Origin: a phage
Direction: 5' to 3' (one strand)
Assembly (NCBI GenBank): GCA_021146325.1
Contig: GCA_021146325.1_4321.1
Length of the DNA: 45,885 bases
Shown: piece by piece, positions 10,897 to 41,354 of the stretch
Numbering within the stretch: position 1 is the first letter of the stretch
How the letters are laid out: each line of letters begins with the position of its first letter
Translations under genes and position numbers: made by a program
Notes under the pieces: generated by a model
Told to the model about the DNA's origin: nothing
Databases searched by the model: none
What the model saw: only the letters and a program-made list of their open reading frames with translations

Positions 10897-13878
10897 TTAG
10901 TTGTAACCCCTCAGATAAGCAAAGGCTCTTCCGCCCTGCTGGAATGACTTGCTGATTTCCTCAGCAACGATAACCTTAACTCCAGATTCTATCGCCTTGG
11001 CATCATTTCCGCCACCAATTCCAGAGTTTACGTTAACCGTCACGCCGCCAACACTGACATTCGTGCCACCAACAACTCCACCATTAGCATAGCCAGAGGG
11101 CCCACCAACAGCGCCGCCATTTGCATAACCTCGCATTAGCTTGTACAGGTTCTTAACGCCAATCCTGCTTGTAGCTTCTTTTGTGAATACAAACTCACCG
11201 CGGTGCACAGTTCCAGCAGGTTGATACTTCCCGCCGTCTCCAGTGTAGCCGCCACCAGCAAAGCCAATTGCTGACTTTATTGACTCAAAGGCACTACCTG
11301 CTCCAGTGTCACCACCAAAGCTCTTAATTGTAGATTCAATAGCCTTTACCAAAAGTAGCTGAGTTGCAATTTTCGCAATCATTTTCAGTATGTTTGCCGT
11401 GAACTCCCTGAAATTAGTCTCTCCAGTGGTTACAAGGTTTGTAATCTGGTAGGTAATTCCATCAAAAGCTGCGACAGTCAAATCCTTAGCAATTTGGTTG
11501 AAGTCAGTATACTTCTCAGTTAAGTCAGCAAGCGTTGAAGTTACACCAGCTTGCCAGTCTGACCTTAGGTTATCTTCCTGCCTGTAGTATTCTTTTCTTG
11601 CTTCCAGCAGATTTTGGAAATCAACATCATCTACAGAGCCACCCTTGTTTACCTGATTGGACTCTAGCGCCTGAAGTTCTCCTGCCCTTTGCCGCTCCCT
11701 TTCGGATAGACCCGCAGCAAGTGAAACATTCTTCGCCTCATTGGTAATCTGTATTGTCTTCTTAAGGTTGTCATCAAGTAACTTGTTTGACTTCTCCTGA
11801 AGCACAATCTGGTCACCAAGTTCAGCCTTCTGTTTAGCCTGTTCAAGAATGATATTCTTCTGCGCAAGTAGCTTAGCCTGTGATTTTGTAAGCGTACCAT
11901 CCGCTTGTCTTTGTTCAAGTATTGCAAACTTCGCTTCTTCCTGGAATAACTGCTTTCTTTCATTGCTTATTACATCATTTATCGTTCTGTGCTCTTGTAA
12001 GACCTTTAACTGAGCCTGAAGTGCAAGAACGCCAGATTCATAAGATAAAGTTAAATCCCTTTCTTCTTTTACAGCCTTTTTCCTCTCACTCCTTGCTTTC
12101 TTTATCGTATCATACTCATCGGCAAGAGCCTTCTTCCTTGCTGCAAACTCCTTATCGGTTGATGCATTATTGCCGCTAAGGTTGGTGTTATTGTTGTTCT
12201 CGACATAACCAAGCTCACCCTTCCTGATTCTCGCATCTCGCTCAGCTATGCTTTTTGCTAACTCCTCATTTTGCTTCTTAGCTGCATCAACAATCTTTTG
12301 CTGCTCAGCGATTGCTTCATTGCCTAAATCGCCAAGTCCAGGTATTGACTGAAGTGTCTTGGTTGCTGCTATTGCAAACTCGCCCAATAGGATATCACCG
12401 GAGTTTATTAACGACCTTATCTGCTCAATAGTCCCAGCAACAACGTCAGTTATTAAGTTAAGCGCCCCAAGCGTCCTTTTGCTTATACCATCCCAAATCT
12501 CACTTACAAACTTCCTGAAGCTATTCCATGCGCTCTCAAGAGGGTTAAGGCTTAGTGCTACGTCTGCTAGCCTGTTTTCCATAACGTTAGCGAATAGCTC
12601 AGTAGCTGCGGTTACAGCCTCTGTTTCTCCAGCCGTCTTCCTGATATTCTCAATGTATTTCAATTGCCCAGACTGAAGGAAGTTGAACTGCTTATCGAGT
12701 GCAATCAGACCTTGAATTGGGTCCTTTGTAATCTGATCAAAGTATCCAAGAATAGTTTTCGAGTCTGTTGATGTTACAGTTGCCCATTGTGCTGTCGCCT
12801 TGGTTATCTTATCTATCTGCGTAAGAGTCAGATTACCGTTTGCTACCAGGCTGTTAGCTATCTCCTGGATAAGTCCGCGCGTGGCTAGTGTTGAACTCTC
12901 AATGCTATCAACAACCTGGTTTATTTGCCCTGTTGATGTGATTGTTGAGTTTCCAACCAGCGTTATTGTTGCTGCTAGCTCTCGTGCGTTCCTATCAGCC
13001 TGATAAGCAGCAATACCCAAGGCCCCAAGAGCCAGACCCAGAGTCCCAACAACCGCCGTTAATGGGTTAATGGCTGCCAGTGCAAACCTTGCTGTATTGC
13101 CGATACCACCAAAACTATCCTTAATCTGACCGCCCTGCTGGACTGCTACAAGCCAGATTGGCATGCCGCTAGCAAGAGATGTAACGATATCTGTAATCTG
13201 CGCTGGAAGCTGTCGAATTGCTTGCTTGTATTGACCGGCACTAAGCCCAGACTTAACAAAAGCGGAGCTTTGCTTCTGCAATTGTACCGCAGATGCCTCG
13301 GCAGCCTTTCCAATCCTGTCGATAATCGGTGCAGCCTGGTCACTAACTCCTAGCTGAGCAGCCTTAAGCTGAAGAAGTTCAGTCCTTGTCAGGCTTGCTG
13401 CATTCGCCTCGTTCTCAAGAGATTGAATGAACTTTTGCGCTGCTGTTGTTGCTTTCTCTTTATCTATTGATGCCTGTAGTGCAGCCCTGCCTTCTTCGCT
13501 AAGAGCGGCTTTAGACCTGTTTAGCTTATTGATTTGAGTTTCAATAACAGAGCCAAGCCTGAAGAATTCATCATCAGGAACTATCCCGGATTCAAATGCT
13601 TTGTCCAAATCTGTTGCTGCTTTCTGCAACTTCAGGAATTTAGCAGCGGTTGGGTCTATGGCTTGCTGAAGTGATGCGAAAGATTTGCGCTGCTCCTCAA
13701 GATGCCTTGCAGTGTCCCTTGCTTGAGTCTTGGCTACAAGTTCGGCGTTGACGAAGCTATTAATGCCTGTTGCAGCTTGCTCGTTTGCTTGCCTGAATTT
13801 CTGTAAGGATTGCGTACCCTTATCGACCTGAGCTACGTCGACGGCTAGCGTGATACCAGCAATTTCGTTAGTTGCCAT
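10897..13878 (-). CDS. tail tape measure protein
   Basis: 993-aa ORF, coiled-coil rich, Gly-rich C-terminus, downstream of the G/GT chaperone. Confidence 0.9.
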   Translation of the reverse strand: MATNEIAGITLAVDVAQVDKGTQSLQKFRQANEQAATGINSFVNAELVAKTQARDTARHLEEQRKSFASLQQAIDPTAAKFLKLQKAATDLDKAFESGIVPDDEFFRLGSVIETQINKLNRSKAALSEEGRAALQASIDKEKATTAAQKFIQSLENEANAASLTRTELLQLKAAQLGVSDQAAPIIDRIGKAAEASAVQLQKQSSAFVKSGLSAGQYKQAIRQLPAQITDIVTSLASGMPIWLVAVQQGGQIKDSFGGIGNTARFALAAINPLTAVVGTLGLALGALGIAAYQADRNARELAATITLVGNSTITSTGQINQVVDSIESSTLATRGLIQEIANSLVANGNLTLTQIDKITKATAQWATVTSTDSKTILGYFDQITKDPIQGLIALDKQFNFLQSGQLKYIENIRKTAGETEAVTAATELFANVMENRLADVALSLNPLESAWNSFRKFVSEIWDGISKRTLGALNLITDVVAGTIEQIRSLINSGDILLGEFAIAATKTLQSIPGLGDLGNEAIAEQQKIVDAAKKQNEELAKSIAERDARIRKGELGYVENNNNTNLSGNNASTDKEFAARKKALADEYDTIKKARSERKKAVKEERDLTLSYESGVLALQAQLKVLQEHRTINDVISNERKQLFQEEAKFAILEQRQADGTLTKSQAKLLAQKNIILEQAKQKAELGDQIVLQEKSNKLLDDNLKKTIQITNEAKNVSLAAGLSERERQRAGELQALESNQVNKGGSVDDVDFQNLLEARKEYYRQEDNLRSDWQAGVTSTLADLTEKYTDFNQIAKDLTVAAFDGITYQITNLVTTGETNFREFTANILKMIAKIATQLLLVKAIESTIKSFGGDTGAGSAFESIKSAIGFAGGGYTGDGGKYQPAGTVHRGEFVFTKEATSRIGVKNLYKLMRGYANGGAVGGPSGYANGGVVGGTNVSVGGVTVNVNSGIGGGNDAKAIESGVKVIVAEEISKSFQQGGRAFAYLRGYN

Positions 13879-13915
13879 GTTGTCTCCATAATAAAAAAGC
13901 CACCCCGAAGGATGG

Positions 13916-14544
13916 CTATTTCTTGGCGTTCATCATATCTAAGGCTTTAGCCTCAAGTATTCTGATGTCGTTAAGTACCATTTCGTCATCATCTATTTTA
14001 TAGACTTTGAACAAGAATGGAAGGCAATTATAATCAAGGCCTGTGGCACCGCAAGCCCCTACTCGCCATTGAGTTGACATGGCACAGTACACATCCCAGC
14101 TTTGCATCATTGTTTCATCGAAGTATAACTCTTCAGGCTCATCACCTTCATAATCGGAACGTTTCATTCCGATAGCTTCGAGTTCAGCATCCGTTGGCGG
14201 TGACTGGTATTGTAAGTATACTGCGCGTTTTAGTTTTTTACTCGCTGACCCGCAAGTGCTTTCATGTAGCTATCCATCAACGATGGCACGGCTCCCGGGA
14301 AAAGGTTGGCAAACTCATCTACGTTATCATCGTTAAATGGCTCTTCTAAATCCCAGTCAGAGCAGATTTCGTTAATCAATTCTTTAGTGCTGAAGTTTTC
14401 ACGGTTAAGAATCTCCTGAAGTTCAGATGATTTCTTGTGCTTAACTGTTAGTACCACCTCTGCATCTTCACCATTCGCTAACTGAAACTTAACCGGAAGT
14501 TTAAAGTCAGGCAGCGCCTTAAGTGAAAGTTTAAATTTTGCCAT
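13916..14544 (-). CDS. tail assembly chaperone GT fusion made by programmed -1 frameshift
   Basis: slippery A AAA AAC at the end of the G frame; the -1 frame stays open into ORF 13916..14167. Confidence 0.6.
14230..14544 (-). CDS. tail assembly chaperone G-like
   Basis: 104-aa acidic ORF between major tail and tape measure genes. Confidence 0.7.
   Translation of the reverse strand: MAKFKLSLKALPDFKLPVKFQLANGEDAEVVLTVKHKKSSELQEILNRENFSTKELINEICSDWDLEEPFNDDNVDEFANLFPGAVPSLMDSYMKALAGQRVKN
14233..14239 (-). other. -1 frameshift slippery heptamer A_AAA_AAC
   Basis: minus-strand AAAAAAC just before the G stop codon. Confidence 0.6.
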
Positions 14545-14579
14545 CTCGTTATCTCCTTTGTTTGTGTTGAATGATTATA

Positions 14580-14828
14580 TTACTTTGATTCGTTTTTTAC
14601 AATGTTGTGAGCAACTTCGGTGCACACCTCGCGACCATAATGCAGAATCTGATTTGTCTTATCGCCAGCTACTTTTTCACAATGAGAATATGCACTATTA
14701 AATTCATGTTCATACTTTATTGCATCAGAGTTAGCGGTTGCGCCACCAGTTGGGTTGACAATCTGAATTGCCAGGTAGAAAGCACCAAGAGCAGCAGCAA
14801 GTTTGATGATATTTTTAACGTTGTTCAT
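14580..14828 (-). CDS. small secreted or membrane protein, moron-like insert in the tail module
   Basis: 82-aa ORF with hydrophobic N-terminus; own promoter cassette and upstream terminator. Confidence 0.5.
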   Translation of the reverse strand: MNNVKNIIKLAAALGAFYLAIQIVNPTGGATANSDAIKYEHEFNSAYSHCEKVAGDKTNQILHYGREVCTEVAHNIVKNESK

Positions 14829-14907: not shown

Positions 14908-14933
14908 ATAAAAAACCCTCCGAAGAGGGTTAA
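14906..14933 (-). terminator. rho-independent terminator after the major tail gene
   Basis: hairpin CCCTC-CGAA-GAGGG then TTTTTATTG on minus. Confidence 0.6.
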
Positions 14934-14945
14934 TTTTTATGCCAG

Positions 14946-15596
14946 TTAAGAAGCTACAGAACTCATCCTGCCGCGAATAGATACCGCAATGGATACCGTT
15001 TCGATTTCGTTAACACCAATGCTCGGCGTGTCGTTGAAAGAGATACTGCCAGACTGGAGACGCATCTCGCTAGCTCGAGGCACGAACAGACGGATAGCAA
15101 CAACAGTACCAGCTTCGTCATAGTTACGCAGAATCGGATATATCGGGTTGGTGTATTCGTGCGCGAAAGTGTAGGTATTAGTTACCGCAGATTTATAAGT
15201 TGGAATCTGTTTCTCACGCTCATCGGATAAACACTGGAAGTTAACGAACTGCTGTTCGCCGCCGTCAGTTGATACGTCCTGAACGCAAGGAACCTCAAGC
15301 CAGCTAAGAATCTTAACCACTTCACCAGTTAAACCGGCCGGGAACTTGGTGGTGTTGGAGGTATCAATACCTTCAACAGTTACCCTTGAACCAGATACAT
15401 TGGTAACGCGAACTTGCTTATCAGCCAGCAGGGTCGAAGTTGAGCTGGTAAATAGCAGGTAATCACCTCTTGCAATATTATCAGCGCTGGACAAAGTTAA
15501 AACAGGAGTAACAGCATTGGAAATTGCAGTTACGTCAATAGTATTTCCCCTGGAGCCTTCTACGAAGACCTGAGTGCCATTACTAAGATGGGCCAT
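14946..15596 (-). CDS. major tail protein
   Basis: 216-aa ORF at the V position just upstream of G/GT. Confidence 0.7.
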   Translation of the reverse strand: MAHLSNGTQVFVEGSRGNTIDVTAISNAVTPVLTLSSADNIARGDYLLFTSSTSTLLADKQVRVTNVSGSRVTVEGIDTSNTTKFPAGLTGEVVKILSWLEVPCVQDVSTDGGEQQFVNFQCLSDEREKQIPTYKSAVTNTYTFAHEYTNPIYPILRNYDEAGTVVAIRLFVPRASEMRLQSGSISFNDTPSIGVNEIETVSIAVSIRGRMSSVAS

Positions 15597-19176: not shown

Positions 19177-20301
19177 TTACTTTTTAATTTTTGCTAAACG
19201 AGCGCGCGGGTCTAATTTCTTAGGTGCGTCGGCAGCATCAGATTTGTCGGAAGCTGCGATTGCCTTGCGAACTTCAGCCATTTTATCAGAATCTTTGGCA
19301 ATGTCGAACGCTGCATCGATGTATGCGTCGGACTTCTCGGAAACATCAAGGCCGGAAACTTCTTTAACGTATAATACCTTAATGCCTTTAGCATCCAGGC
19401 CATCAGTCTTAACACCAGCTTCATTGGCTACAGTAACCAGAGCGGCAAGTGCTTCAGCGTCAGCTTTGGCAGCTTTGACTGCTTTCTCGATTTCAGCGGG
19501 CATTGCGTCTACTTTGGCTTTCAGTGCGTCACGCTCAGCTTCAATGGTATCAGCTTTAGCTTTGGCGTCATCTGCGTCTTTCTTGATAGTTGTAATGTGT
19601 GCGGCAACTTCTGGAGCGATTTCGAACTCTTGAGCGCCATCCAGTTTAATCTTAACCATTTCTTTAACATCCTCTTTAATAGAATCAACGTTGTCAGTAT
19701 ACGGGTTTTCTTGCTGCCCGTCCATATTTAGCTTAGCAATTCCAGCCCTACCCCTGAACACCATGGCTAAGTGGTTTACCTTAATGTCTCGCTGGATTGC
19801 GTCGAACTCTTGCCAGTCAGGAGGTATGTCGAGCCCCTGCGTGTTGTCAGTCCTAAGAATGTACTTACCAGTTGCCGGGTCACCCCAACCTGGAGTTTCA
19901 TCAAGAACTGCCGAGTAACCTACAGATAATTCCTTAGCGTTACCTGAGCGAGCCTCGTCAATAGCTTCTTGAGAGTATACGACAATTGGCGCAATTACCG
20001 TACTTCCTAGAGCCTCAGCTTTACCAGTTACCGAGCCGACCACTACGTCTTTAGCGTTATCGGAGTTTACAAAGACGTGGTCAAGAGTCATTGGCTTACC
20101 CTGGTAACTGGCTAGCGACTCCTCTTTGAAGACTTCTTCTGCTGGCCTGAACTCTCGAACAGTCGAACCGTCCTCTGTGAAATAAACCTGCACACCAACC
20201 CTTGCTACTACTGGCGTATCGACGAGAAAACCATTCTCGTCAATGGTGGCTTTGAATGTTGCTGTATCAAAGCGATTCTTATACATCCCAATTCTCCTCA
20301 C
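19177..20301 (-). CDS. putative scaffolding or prohead protease-like protein
   Basis: 374-aa ORF with Ala/Lys-rich coiled-coil C-terminal third. Confidence 0.55.
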   Translation of the reverse strand: MRRIGMYKNRFDTATFKATIDENGFLVDTPVVARVGVQVYFTEDGSTVREFRPAEEVFKEESLASYQGKPMTLDHVFVNSDNAKDVVVGSVTGKAEALGSTVIAPIVVYSQEAIDEARSGNAKELSVGYSAVLDETPGWGDPATGKYILRTDNTQGLDIPPDWQEFDAIQRDIKVNHLAMVFRGRAGIAKLNMDGQQENPYTDNVDSIKEDVKEMVKIKLDGAQEFEIAPEVAAHITTIKKDADDAKAKADTIEAERDALKAKVDAMPAEIEKAVKAAKADAEALAALVTVANEAGVKTDGLDAKGIKVLYVKEVSGLDVSEKSDAYIDAAFDIAKDSDKMAEVRKAIAASDKSDAADAPKKLDPRARLAKIKK

Positions 20302-38220: not shown

Positions 38221-39930
38221 TCAATCCTCCATCGTAAATGATTTGTTGGCGATAATATCTTGAGACTTCTGGTTTTTACGGTGTGTGATTCTCAATGGGG
38301 CACGGAATAGATGTGCATTTGTCATAATCATTCTAGCATTACGCAATCTGCCAATTCTGAATGCCTCAGTCCTGTTATCGATGTGTGTTGAGCAGAAAGC
38401 CTTCCATTTAACAGAGCAAACGCGATGGTCTGATTCAGGGAAGAATGTTTCATAAGCTCGGAATCTGTCACCACTGTGAGCCATAACCTCATATGAAGCA
38501 ATAATCCCTGACTGGTTCTTTGTTAACCCAATCTTGAAGTCATAAACTCGCAACCAGTCCCCCTTACGATACATTTTTCCTGATAACTTAGCATTCGGGT
38601 CTATGAGCATCTCACCACAGCATCTGCAATTCTTAGCTGCAATATCATTCTTCTCACCGCATCCTTTCTTGATGATAGCTTTGGTCTGTGGGTCCGCTAT
38701 ATCTTCACACAGTCTAAACTGAAAGAAGTGCTCGCAACGCTTACCGTCAATTACATTATTACAACGCCGTGCGAACGGAGAGTTCTCATAAGAACATGCC
38801 GGGCATACCCTAGGTTCATCACCTCCTTTCCTTGATGACTTAAACTTCTGGTCCTGAACTTCTTCTATAATTGGGTCAAAGTAAAGCTCTGCCATATCGT
38901 CAAGCGTTCCGGCGAAATCGAGAACAACATGGTCTTCTTTTACCATCCCTGAATCCTTGTGTTTTTTCTTAAGAATTCGCATACCACGACCAAGCAACTG
39001 AATGAGTAGAGTAATGCTACCAACCTTCCTCAGGATAATGCTTGTATCCCACGGGGGGCAGTTTACGCCAGTTGTGAGGCAACCAATCTGAAATATGAAC
39101 TTATATTCTCCGTTAGCTGCCTTCTCAAGTATCTCTCTACGCTTCTTCTCACCAGTGGAGTTGGTAACTATCGCCCAAGTAACACCTTCTGGAAGTGCGG
39201 CTGCCGCCTCCTCGCAATGCTGTTTGCCAGCGCAAGTTACCAATGCAGCATTCCTTGTTTCCATAAACTTAGCAGCAAATCCCATTATCTTTTGTGTCAT
39301 CGTTTGGTTTTCGTGAATCTTTGCAGCCATCGCATCCATTTCTTTCTTGCTGAAGTCCTTAACCCCATCACTTCCATCAGGAGTGAACTCACTAAGGTCG
39401 TAGCCCAAATCACCAACTTCACCGTAGACAGTAGGAACAACGAACCCCAAGTCAACAAGGTAGCTGGTTGGCACTTGCATTACAGTTTTGCGCCAGAATC
39501 CACGGACATTTGGGTTACTAACTACAATGTGGTCGTTGTTACGGTACGGGCTACCAGTTAACCCAAAGATACGAAGTTCGCGACCGTACTTCTCCTTGCA
39601 TCGACGCTTCATTTCGGTAATGATTAACGTGTATTGCGCGCGACCAGTGCCAAGAAGCCCGGTATTCACACCATCCTTAAAGACCATCTCACCCTTCTTC
39701 GTGCTCATCTGCTCGAATGTTTCCTCATTCTCTTCAGCTTCTACGATATCCATATGGTCCACCATGTGGCAATTATGTGCCACGACCCCGTCAGCAATGA
39801 AATTATGGTGCTCAGGCATCTCTATATCCCAAACAAGTTCCTTGCCAATGGGTGAGATGTCTTTAATTTTGCTTGATTTTGTATTCCACGCCATTTTCCA
39901 TGTGCTTACTAATTCTCTTAAAAAACTCAT
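38221..39930 (-). CDS. SF2 helicase C-terminal gene: C-intein (53 aa) plus C-extein
   Basis: own ATG 39930 with RBS GAGGT; intein block G HNFIADGVVAHN then Cys; C-extein has helicase-like motifs GLTGSP and QLLGRGMR and zinc-finger-like Cys clusters. Confidence 0.75.
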   Translation of the reverse strand: MSFLRELVSTWKMAWNTKSSKIKDISPIGKELVWDIEMPEHHNFIADGVVAHNCHMVDHMDIVEAEENEETFEQMSTKKGEMVFKDGVNTGLLGTGRAQYTLIITEMKRRCKEKYGRELRIFGLTGSPYRNNDHIVVSNPNVRGFWRKTVMQVPTSYLVDLGFVVPTVYGEVGDLGYDLSEFTPDGSDGVKDFSKKEMDAMAAKIHENQTMTQKIMGFAAKFMETRNAALVTCAGKQHCEEAAAALPEGVTWAIVTNSTGEKKRREILEKAANGEYKFIFQIGCLTTGVNCPPWDTSIILRKVGSITLLIQLLGRGMRILKKKHKDSGMVKEDHVVLDFAGTLDDMAELYFDPIIEEVQDQKFKSSRKGGDEPRVCPACSYENSPFARRCNNVIDGKRCEHFFQFRLCEDIADPQTKAIIKKGCGEKNDIAAKNCRCCGEMLIDPNAKLSGKMYRKGDWLRVYDFKIGLTKNQSGIIASYEVMAHSGDRFRAYETFFPESDHRVCSVKWKAFCSTHIDNRTEAFRIGRLRNARMIMTNAHLFRAPLRITHRKNQKSQDIIANKSFTMED

Positions 39931-40910
39931 CTTGTGCCGACCTCGTTGTTATTGATACTGAGTAAAGCTCTCTCTTTTTCTTGCCGCCAATATAGCTTCT
40001 AACCTTAACTCCGTCATTAGCAATAAATGCTATTAGCGCATCAGCTACTGATTGAACTTCACGCCTGCTAAATGATTCGGTGTGGATTTCTACAACCCTC
40101 TTCCCTGAGCTTACAGTGCAATGACCATCATCACCAAAGTAAGCAGCCCAACCAACTGGATCAAGCTCTCTGCATATCTTTCCAATATCGTAACCATCCT
40201 TAGAATTTCCGTACTTATCAGCATATGAATCCAGAACTTTCGTACATGATGTTGATACGCAAAACCAGTTGTCGCCAAATCCAGGGTTTTTCTTCTCCCT
40301 GTATCTAGGGTTTAGTTTTGCAAACCTTTCAACCTTGCTTAGTGCGTGCTCCTTATTTCCAATATTCCAAGATGGCCTATGCGTTCCTTTTCTGTATTTT
40401 TAATCAAGCAACCATCACCAGCCATTGCCGCAAGAATGTTTTGATGTAAAAAGTCATCAACCTCCATTGATGGGTTGACGGTTGAATTATGATGCCCCGT
40501 TCTGTAATCCAAATAGAAATCGAAAGGGTTCTTAAGAAGTACGCCTAACCCCTTGCTTGAATGCGGCATAACTTTTTCACCACAGCCACACTTGCACGCA
40601 GGAGCTTTTTCGTAAATTTGTCCTGCGAGCCGTCTAGCGACAGATTCATCCCAATACAAAGTTTTCCCGCTCCGACCCAGCAGCCGTTCGAATAAAGTTT
40701 GTGTGTACTCGTGCATTTTATTTCCTCTCCGCTTTCTAATTTAATTGATGATACATGTCTTACACCATTAGTAAAAACTCTTTTTGGCTTATGATAGAAG
40801 TAATCACCAGTGCTTTCGTTTATGCATTTTATTTTATGATTGATAAGGTCTTCGCTATCAATCCTCATCATCCCTGAATCGGTGGTTATCATCGTGTCTC
40901 CAGTTAAGCA
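39772..40910 (-). mobile_element. split intein in helicase motif II: N-intein 40548..40910, endonuclease-like remnants, C-intein 39772..39930
   Basis: blocks A (CLTGDTMI), B (IKCTSTHKLY) and G (HNFIADGVVAHN-C); N-intein ends in a stop after 121 residues; intein DNA is 1139 bp, not a multiple of 3. Confidence 0.7.
39863..40740 (-). pseudogene. homing-endonuclease-like remnant split over two reading frames between the intein halves
   Basis: frame 1 ORF 40339..40716 (Cys cluster CKCGCG; ...AMAGDG...), frame 2 open 39863..40399 without a start codon (...IAFIANDG...); family not assignable by eye. Confidence 0.4.
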
Positions 40911-41354
40911 CTCATCTATCGCGATAACAGCAGGAGCATAGTCACCAAGCCCCTTAAACAAGCCGTTAGCAGCCGTTCCCTCACTAGCCACTATGGTTGG
41001 ATAGTAAACTGATTTAACGTTAAGGCCAGCGCAATAGACGCTATTACGGATGCCGAAATTACGAAGTTCCTCTGCGTTCTGGCTGATAATCTCTGACTGG
41101 CGAGATAGGACCATGTAAGGAAGGCCAAGCTGTTCCATTCGTTTCCCAATCATGGCGAGAATAATCGTCTTGCCAGCCGAAACCGATAGGTCTGCTATGA
41201 ATGGCGCTTCGTACTTGCCAATAGCCTTTCCGATTGCGTCAAATGTCACGCACTGGAATGGGTATGGTGTGATTTCTCCGAACTGATAATCATTTTGAAT
41301 CTGCTTGATTTTATCTTGGTCAAAGTTTGCTACTAAGCGTTCTACTGGAAGCAT
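40545..41354 (-). CDS. SF2 helicase N-terminal gene: N-extein (Walker A SVSAGKT ... IAIDE) plus N-intein
   Basis: 269-aa ORF; the extein junction would rebuild IAIDE-CHMV, a DECH box. Confidence 0.75.
   Translation of the reverse strand: MLPVERLVANFDQDKIKQIQNDYQFGEITPYPFQCVTFDAIGKAIGKYEAPFIADLSVSAGKTIILAMIGKRMEQLGLPYMVLSRQSEIISQNAEELRNFGIRNSVYCAGLNVKSVYYPTIVASEGTAANGLFKGLGDYAPAVIAIDECLTGDTMITTDSGMMRIDSEDLINHKIKCINESTGDYFYHKPKRVFTNGVRHVSSIKLESGEEIKCTSTHKLYSNGCWVGAGKLCIGMNLSLDGSQDKFTKKLLRASVAVVKKLCRIQARG

Follow-up and report, generated by a model that had tools for sequence, protein, structure and literature searches.

In bacteriophage lambda, two tail-assembly chaperones, G and its extended form GT, are produced by a programmed -1 ribosomal frameshift at the sequence G_GGA_AAG (PMC5009743, summarising Levin, Hendrix & Casjens 1993; Xu, Hendrix & Duda 2004, 2013, 2014). 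The lambda proteins occur at a ratio of 30:1, and G-T frameshifting is widely conserved in long-tailed phages (PMC5009743). The locus considered here lies on a phage contig of 45,885 nucleotides (nt) (contig GCA_021146325.1_4321.1 of GenBank assembly GCA_021146325.1), hereafter called the window, which originates from a T1-like siphophage (Drexlerviridae, Braunvirinae). On its minus strand, the G and T reading frames meet at the heptamer A_AAA_AAC, which we regard, with a probability of roughly 90%, as the site of a programmed -1 ribosomal frameshift that would give two tail-assembly chaperones from one messenger RNA (mRNA). Judged by every feature that can be assessed in the sequence, the site is the orthologue of the T1 ST40/ST39 locus and a member of the lambda-type G/GT class. 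Such a feature is already known and is ordinary for tailed phages; in the clade of the window, it has been left unannotated.

Like lambda, the window has overlapping open reading frames (ORFs) between the major tail and tape-measure genes, the second of them in the -1 frame and without a start of its own. It also has a canonical heptamer at the very end of G, the coding capacity for a short and a C-terminally extended product, and no apparent 3' stimulator. Unlike lambda, the A-site transfer RNA (tRNA) at the window heptamer is that for Asn, not the shift-prone tRNA-Lys, which predicts a lower efficiency in Escherichia coli. Two further differences are that the heptamer directly adjoins a stop codon, and that an extra ORF of 82 amino acids (aa) stands between the tube gene and G. 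T1 (ST40/ST39) and the other Drexlerviridae are closer: their gene order is identical, the LKRAVYL... peptide recurs at the shift point, and T1 and most subfamilies have A_AAA_AAC TAA. The window nevertheless differs from the T1/Tempevirinae-type loci, as it has no downstream hairpin and as its clade possesses an ATG for T.

Two non-phage systems share parts of the signal. The transposase InsAB' of the insertion sequence IS1 relies on the same heptamer in the same host, where A_AAA_AAC is a proven -1 site with no established stimulator, shifting at more than 0.10% without stimulators, and where the low efficiency sets a low level of the fusion protein (PMC4066793). The proteins are unrelated, and the likeness is confined to the recoding signal. 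The E. coli dnaX site (A_AAA_AAG) also involves a -1 tandem slip on an A-rich heptamer with tRNA-Lys in the P site. However, dnaX combines the high-efficiency AAG A-site codon with an upstream Shine-Dalgarno (SD)-like element and a downstream hairpin, whereas the window has neither stimulator; moreover, the dnaX shift leads to a shorter product, while that of the window would lead to a longer one.

Anatomy of the G/T junction

G terminates in ...AGQRVKN*, encoded by the final codons CGA GTA AAA AAC TAA, and the heptamer spans the last base of the Val codon together with AAA (Lys) and AAC (Asn), the two codons that precede the stop codon of G. T is read in the -1 frame with respect to G, and this frame is open from 14269 to a TAG at 13916..13918; its opening is situated 37 nt ahead of the start of the G stop codon, which gives a 37-nt overlap. 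The linker of 22 codons separating the shift point from the usually annotated T ORF (Table 1) contains no ATG, GTG or TTG, and can therefore be translated only by ribosomes coming from G after a shift.

This arrangement had been proposed beforehand by a model reading the letters of the window. Direct reading and scripted translation reproduced the position and phase of the heptamer, the codons closing G, and a -1 frame running open into the T ORF, as given in that original prediction. The fusion, put there at about 200 aa, amounts to 209 aa when a -1 slip on the heptamer is translated.

Comparative evidence in Drexlerviridae

Junctions were gathered from 49 loci and T1. Among them, 37 distinct Drexlerviridae junctions entered a synonymous-site test, and 35 sequences were used for a frame-switch test on the 66 nt following the shift point. 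The orthologous G proteins are 44-98% identical across T1, Sparks, Skenny and other Drexlerviridae.

Ahead of the heptamer, synonymous positions vary freely. Codons -9 to -4 encode A-L-A-G-Q-R with amino acids that are invariant, bar one Gln-to-His change, but each residue is written with two to four codons, and the third-position entropy is 0.97-1.66 bits. At the heptamer codons, this entropy falls to 0 (codon -3), 0.57 (codon -2) and 0.18 bits (codon -1). All 37 junctions have A as the third base of the Val/Ala codon -3, 32 of them have AAA for Lys, and in 31, AAC is the codon before the stop. The complete string GTA/GCA AAA AAC is, thus, present in 31/37 distinct junctions (32/38 with T1). 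The stop codon of G is TAA in 37/37, even if a change to TGA would be silent in the -1 frame (CTA to CTG).

Past the shift point, the constraint passes to the -1 frame. The entropies at the three codon positions of this frame are 0.47, 0.29 and 1.20, i.e., they show codon periodicity, and 66% of the codon differences are synonymous in the -1 frame, versus 5% and 7% in the other frames. Stop codons are absent from the -1 frame in all 35 sequences; the other two frames are interrupted in 35/35 and 27/35 of them. The peptide LKRAVYL.Y...PTD.EL..G is conserved starting at the first codon read after the slip. T1 itself carries GCA AAA AAC TAA followed by the same -1 peptide, although gene 39 starts at an internal ATG in the T1 record, so that 149 nt stay unannotated.

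Two clades deviate from the exact motif, with GCA AAA GTT in Webervirus and GCA AAG GTC in the phiKP26 group. They retain A_AAA or A_AAG at the same spot, and both are motifs on which a single tRNA-Lys is known to slip in E. coli (PMC4066793). The frameshift thus appears to be conserved even where the motif differs. Taken with the position of the locus, the families of its proteins, the -1 phase and the startless T, this fixation of synonymous sites upholds the G/GT-type interpretation that the original prediction had advanced.

Possible occurrence of the heptamer by chance

The heptamer could also be devoid of function, as a by-product of a conserved C-terminal Val-Lys-Asn, with T being a decaying or unexpressed ORF. 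The bare string provides some ground for this. AAAAAAC occurs 13 times in the window against 13.5 +/- 3.6 expected from shuffles, and its enrichment was, therefore, dropped as evidence. A second in-phase A_AAA_AAC, at 14592..14598(-), falls close to the end of the 82-aa ORF that precedes G. Its -1 frame extends over only 5 codons, and neither IMM-001 nor the Guelphvirus relatives (L003/L004) share it, which makes this copy evidently meaningless, as far as can be read from these data, and useful as an internal negative control.

Such an origin is, nevertheless, extremely improbable for the G/T site. Its third positions (GTA, AAA, AAC) are fixed beyond what amino-acid conservation demands, given the free codon usage of the six preceding residues, and T is a recognised Pfam domain, scoring above the gathering threshold; purifying selection acts on it in over 1000 phage records.

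The site also stands apart within the window. A survey of in-phase X_XXY_YYZ heptamers in all window ORFs of at least 60 aa (n=55) gave a median -1 read-on of 7 codons, with at least 80 codons in only 6 of the 55 cases, and among these six, the G/T site alone adjoins its own stop codon. Four of the other long read-on heptamers (27781+, 37278+, 37428+ and 30322+) were set aside since they are situated in shadow or antisense ORFs, and the fifth (40668-) since it belongs to an unrelated overlap in a split helicase region. What exceeds chance, by this reckoning, is the combination of a long -1 read-on, an adjoining stop codon and synonymous-site conservation across the family.

Possible translation of T from its own start codon

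T is usually annotated as an independent 83-aa gene starting at ATG 14167. This gene could be translated de novo, or by re-initiation after the G stop codon 63 nt upstream, in which case the heptamer would be incidental. The ATG does exist in the clade of the window and in Guelphvirus, and a stand-alone 83-aa T is annotated in ES, IMM-001, TR2 and an E. coli third-party annotation (TPA) record with an identical protein.

We consider this alternative very unlikely. The anti-SD duplex before ATG 14167 reaches only -2.6 kcal/mol, which is the median of the 140 ATG triplets of the region and, thus, no better than a random ATG; the corresponding values are -8.7 kcal/mol for G, preceded by a strong SD sequence (AAGGAG), and -6.4 kcal/mol for the tape-measure gene. 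In T1, Tempevirinae and Webervirus, the Met at 14167 is replaced by Leu, and the first start codon of the T frame in these relatives is found at least 41 codons past the shift, within the conserved domain. Coding constraint in the -1 frame extends over the 22 codons ahead of the ATG, which would be senseless if translation began there. Finally, an incidental heptamer is at odds with its near fixation at synonymous sites.

Length of the A-run and possible transcriptional slippage

Frame changes at a homopolymer can also arise during transcription. The RNA polymerase may slip on the A6 run and add one A in a fraction of the transcripts, which would bring T into the frame of G with the junction ...VKKLKR.... 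The site is indeed a homopolymer run, one inserted A suffices, and four database records differ by one A at this very run, so that length errors do occur there, at least in sequencing. However, appreciable transcriptional slippage in bacteria is known for runs of about 8-9 or more, and A6 is shorter. The conserved element is the phased A_AAA_AAC with its adjoining stop codon, not the length of the run, and the clades without A6 have A_AAG_G (3 A's) or A_AAA_G (4 A's), which fits slippage of tRNA-Lys, not of the polymerase. Polymerase slippage is, hence, a highly improbable source of the fusion.

The four records in question (L002, MN840485, phage 2725-N35; L047; L010, MW032452, N5822; L046, Salmonella phage 36) have A5 in place of A6. 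In them, T is not in the -1 frame, and a spurious extended 'G' (...VKTKT...) results. Since A5 would put T in the +1 frame and yield no GT, these variants also speak against the polymerase route. N5822 and phage 36 contain additional frame breaks within G. An alternative recoding was set aside for these records, all of them being one A short and two having the extra breaks in G; on the sequence data, they are probably homopolymer sequencing errors that were carried into the annotation.

Proposed mechanism and expected efficiency

We infer the slip itself, as well as the roles of G and T, from this anatomy and from the better-known systems. Most ribosomes would translate G and stop at the TAA adjoining A_AAA_AAC. 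A small fraction, holding tRNA-Lys (AAA) in the P site and tRNA-Asn (AAC) in the A site, would slip back by one base and re-pair on AAA/AAA; alternatively, tRNA-Lys alone may slip before the A site is filled. The slipped ribosomes would go on with CUA AAA CGC... and add 105 residues, yielding the 209-aa GT. A tandem slip after Asn decoding would give the junction MKALAGQRVKNLKRAVY; slippage in the P site, like an added A in the transcript, would give ...VKKLKRAVY. If lambda is a guide, the tape-measure protein would be coated by the G part common to both proteins, the recruitment of major tail protein would fall to the T (DUF1799) part, and neither G nor GT would stay in the virion.

In the window, the 60 nt following the heptamer have a minimum free energy of -7.9 kcal/mol (z=-0.08), indicating no stimulatory fold; a 110-nt fold reaches z=-1.6, with nothing next to the slippery site, and RNAalifold on 12 relatives predicted 0 pairs. 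The site is, by these predictions, unlike -1 signals of the IS911, IS3 or dnaX type, in which a stable hairpin or pseudoknot starts about 5-9 nt past the heptamer. The situation differs in T1 and Tempevirinae-type relatives (L021, L023-L039, L048, L049 and T1, the last at L050 19187..19230), in which a stable hairpin (GGGCGGTT...AACCGCCC) begins 6-7 nt after the heptamer, with an energy of -14 to -19 kcal/mol and, in most carriers, z of about -2 to -3.5. It is absent from the window (14170..14232) and from other Braunvirinae. The codons CGG GCG GTT ... CCG CCC of the hairpin are replaced in the window by CGC GCA GTA ... CCG CCA, and it is because of these different synonymous codons and of an S/E/D-for-K change that the window lacks the hairpin. 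No compensatory double changes were seen in the hairpin, and its support, therefore, comes only from synonymous-site fixation. A role as frameshift stimulator in T1 and Tempevirinae-type phages is plausible on this pattern.

Several points weigh against programmed frameshifting at this site. No published protein or ribosome-profiling evidence was found for this phage or its close relatives. Neither the folds nor RNAalifold predict a 3' hairpin or pseudoknot in the window, and SD-like pairing upstream of the heptamer is weak and inconsistent (-3.2 kcal/mol in the window, range -2.5 to -6.2), so that GT could be much rarer than the roughly 1 in 30 of lambda. A_AAA_AAC is classed as a low-efficiency site in E. 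coli (PMC4066793, PMC5009743). The four relatives with A5 instead of A6 and the ATG at 14167 in the clade of the window count on the same side, and a small amount of free T may be made from this ATG.

The re-pairing of AAC to AAA is poorly tolerated by bacterial ribosomes (PMC4066793). Given this weakness of AAC as an A-site codon in E. coli, and with no stimulator predicted by the folds, the shift frequency in the window is probably low, roughly a few tenths of a percent to about 1%, and perhaps lower than in T1; the low frequency assumed in the original prediction is, hence, reasonable. The invariant adjacent TAA may contribute something to shifting, for which its retention in 37/37 junctions is weak evidence.

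A tentative extension, which we hold to be possible but rather doubtful, is that one family runs the same G/GT site in two ways. The site would be assisted by the hairpin in T1 and Tempevirinae-type phages; in Braunvirinae, the hairpin would have been lost through synonymous changes, leaving a bare low-efficiency heptamer, possibly aided by the adjacent UAA or the clade-specific ATG. If this holds, the G:GT ratio, which is considered critical in lambda, either differs several-fold between relatives with near-identical tails or is compensated otherwise. The presence or absence of the hairpin at an otherwise identical site would, thus, constitute a natural experiment on G:GT stoichiometry, which is the one angle of the locus that is mildly interesting beyond its annotation.

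Protein families

G matches PF08748 (Phage_TAC_4) with E=3.3e-32 and 111.7 bits (gathering cut-off 21.1), its residues 1-104 covering positions 1-124 of the 124-position profile. T matches PF08809 (DUF1799) with E=1.7e-14 and 54.2 bits (gathering cut-off 26) over positions 2-80 of 80. In PHROG, G corresponds to phrog_569 and T to phrog_680. In addition, phrog_17368 (213 positions) is covered end to end, by G over 1-107 and by T over 109-211; fused entries are, therefore, already present in databases.

The lambda gpG/gpT Pfam families gave no match, a Pfam scan at E up to 1 returning only Phage_TAC_4 for G and DUF1799 for T. Likewise, no model matched GT in an NCBIfam search, and no sequence relative of G or T was found among solved structures in the PDB. 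On these profile comparisons, kinship to lambda is positional and mechanistic, and not one of family membership.

Clustering at 90% identity or more places G and T with proteins filed under Nitratidesulfovibrio liaohensis (WP_167124356.1 and WP_167124354.1), and a partial protein of the T cluster is filed under Staphylococcus aureus (WP_337136264.1). Neither species is a plausible host for a T1-like phage of E. coli, and the entries are, therefore, likely due to assembly contamination.

Existing annotation

Frameshifting at this locus has been recorded in some relatives. In Klebsiella phage Sparks, the homologous locus carries a two-piece coding sequence (CDS) labelled 'tape measure chaperone, frameshift product'. 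Adding 1 to the length of its span gives a multiple of three, which is what a -1 join should produce. For the T1-like phage Skenny, a chaperone frameshift analogous to that of lambda G and GT is described in the genome announcement (PMC6763657).

The records closest to the window keep G separate from an 83-aa protein called 'T', 'TfmS', 'minor tail protein' or 'DUF1799 domain-containing protein', or omit T. Proteins identical to G and T are deposited as separate entries from an E. coli TPA assembly, and a collection of about 15 billion proteins contains no fused GT of this phage, neither in the N nor in the K version of the junction. The main value of the present analysis is, hence, for annotation, as a correct record would add a 209-aa ribosomal-slippage CDS.

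Locus map and neighbouring features

Around this locus, the window shares about 95% identity with Escherichia phages ES and AN_ECEAS, and about 70% with Guelphvirus members. The genes follow one another on the minus strand in the order major tail protein, 82-aa ORF, G, T and tape measure (Table 1).

Table 1. Coordinates of the G/T locus and its landmarks in the window.
Feature	Position	Strand	Evidence and remarks
Major tail (tube) protein gene	14946..15596	-	PF08813 Phage_tail_3, E=4.8e-66; phrog_584; upstream landmark
Gene G, tail assembly chaperone, 104 aa, 11.8 kDa, standard translation product	14230..14544	-	ORF, PF08748
Slippery heptamer A_AAA_AAC, X_XXY_YYZ phase	14233..14239	-	Direct reading and scripted translation
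Stop codon TAA of G (0 frame), directly 3' of the heptamer	14230..14232	-	
Linker in the -1 frame, 22 codons, LKRAVYLQYQSPPTDAELEAIG	14168..14233	-	Scripted translation
T ORF as usually annotated, 83 aa from ATG 14167, DUF1799, predicted C-terminal part of GT	13916..14167	-	
Complete predicted GT fusion coding span	13916..14544	-	629 nt + 1 re-read base = 210 codons; 209 aa, 23.9 kDa
Tape-measure gene, 993-aa ORF	10897..13878	-	TIGR01541 tape_meas_lam_C, E=1.1e-53; downstream landmark
Intrinsic-terminator-like hairpin and T-run, overlapping the T stop, about 20 nt before the tape-measure start	13898..13917	-	

The 82-aa ORF (14580..14828(-)) is located between the tube-gene terminator and G and has a hydrophobic N-terminus (MNNVKNIIKLAAALGAFYLAIQIV...). 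It corresponds to phrog_22925, of unknown function, and has no Pfam match. In T1, the equivalent stretch is a 113-nt gap free of ORFs, and the window ORF looks like a moron-like insertion. A promoter-like sequence, TTGTAA-17-TATAAT, is found at 14602..14574, just upstream of G.

The chaperone cassette is bracketed by two strong intrinsic-terminator-like hairpins, one after the tube gene (14914..14931(-)) and the other at the end of T (Table 1). Terminators are annotated in T1 at both equivalent places, that at the T-stop/tape-measure position being 19508..19527. This pairing suggests a stepwise attenuation of transcription from the tube gene to the chaperones and on to the tape measure.

Other observations

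Elsewhere in the window, the helicase gene (38221..41354(-)) appears, from its sequence, to be 'fractured' by a split intein. The ORF of its N-terminal part (40545..41354) reads ...VIAIDE, then CLTGDTMI... (an intein N-terminal block), and stops. The first 53 or so residues of the ORF at 38221..39930 end in ...HNFIADGVVAHN|CHMVDH, i.e., an intein C-terminal block and a +1 Cys, and are followed by Helicase_C. Both helicase ORFs match Pfam Intein_splicing, with scores under the gathering threshold (E=6e-4 and 4e-5). A 125-aa ORF (40339..40716) lies between the two parts; it has no family match and includes ILAAMAGDGCL, a loose resemblance to LAGLIDADG. The 172-nt overlap of this region holds an in-phase G_GGA_AAA (40662..40668), probably by coincidence. 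The split-helicase arrangement is common to ES and AN_ECEAS (94.9% nt identity), and the helicase is uninterrupted in TR1, TR2, CY1 and Rao1.

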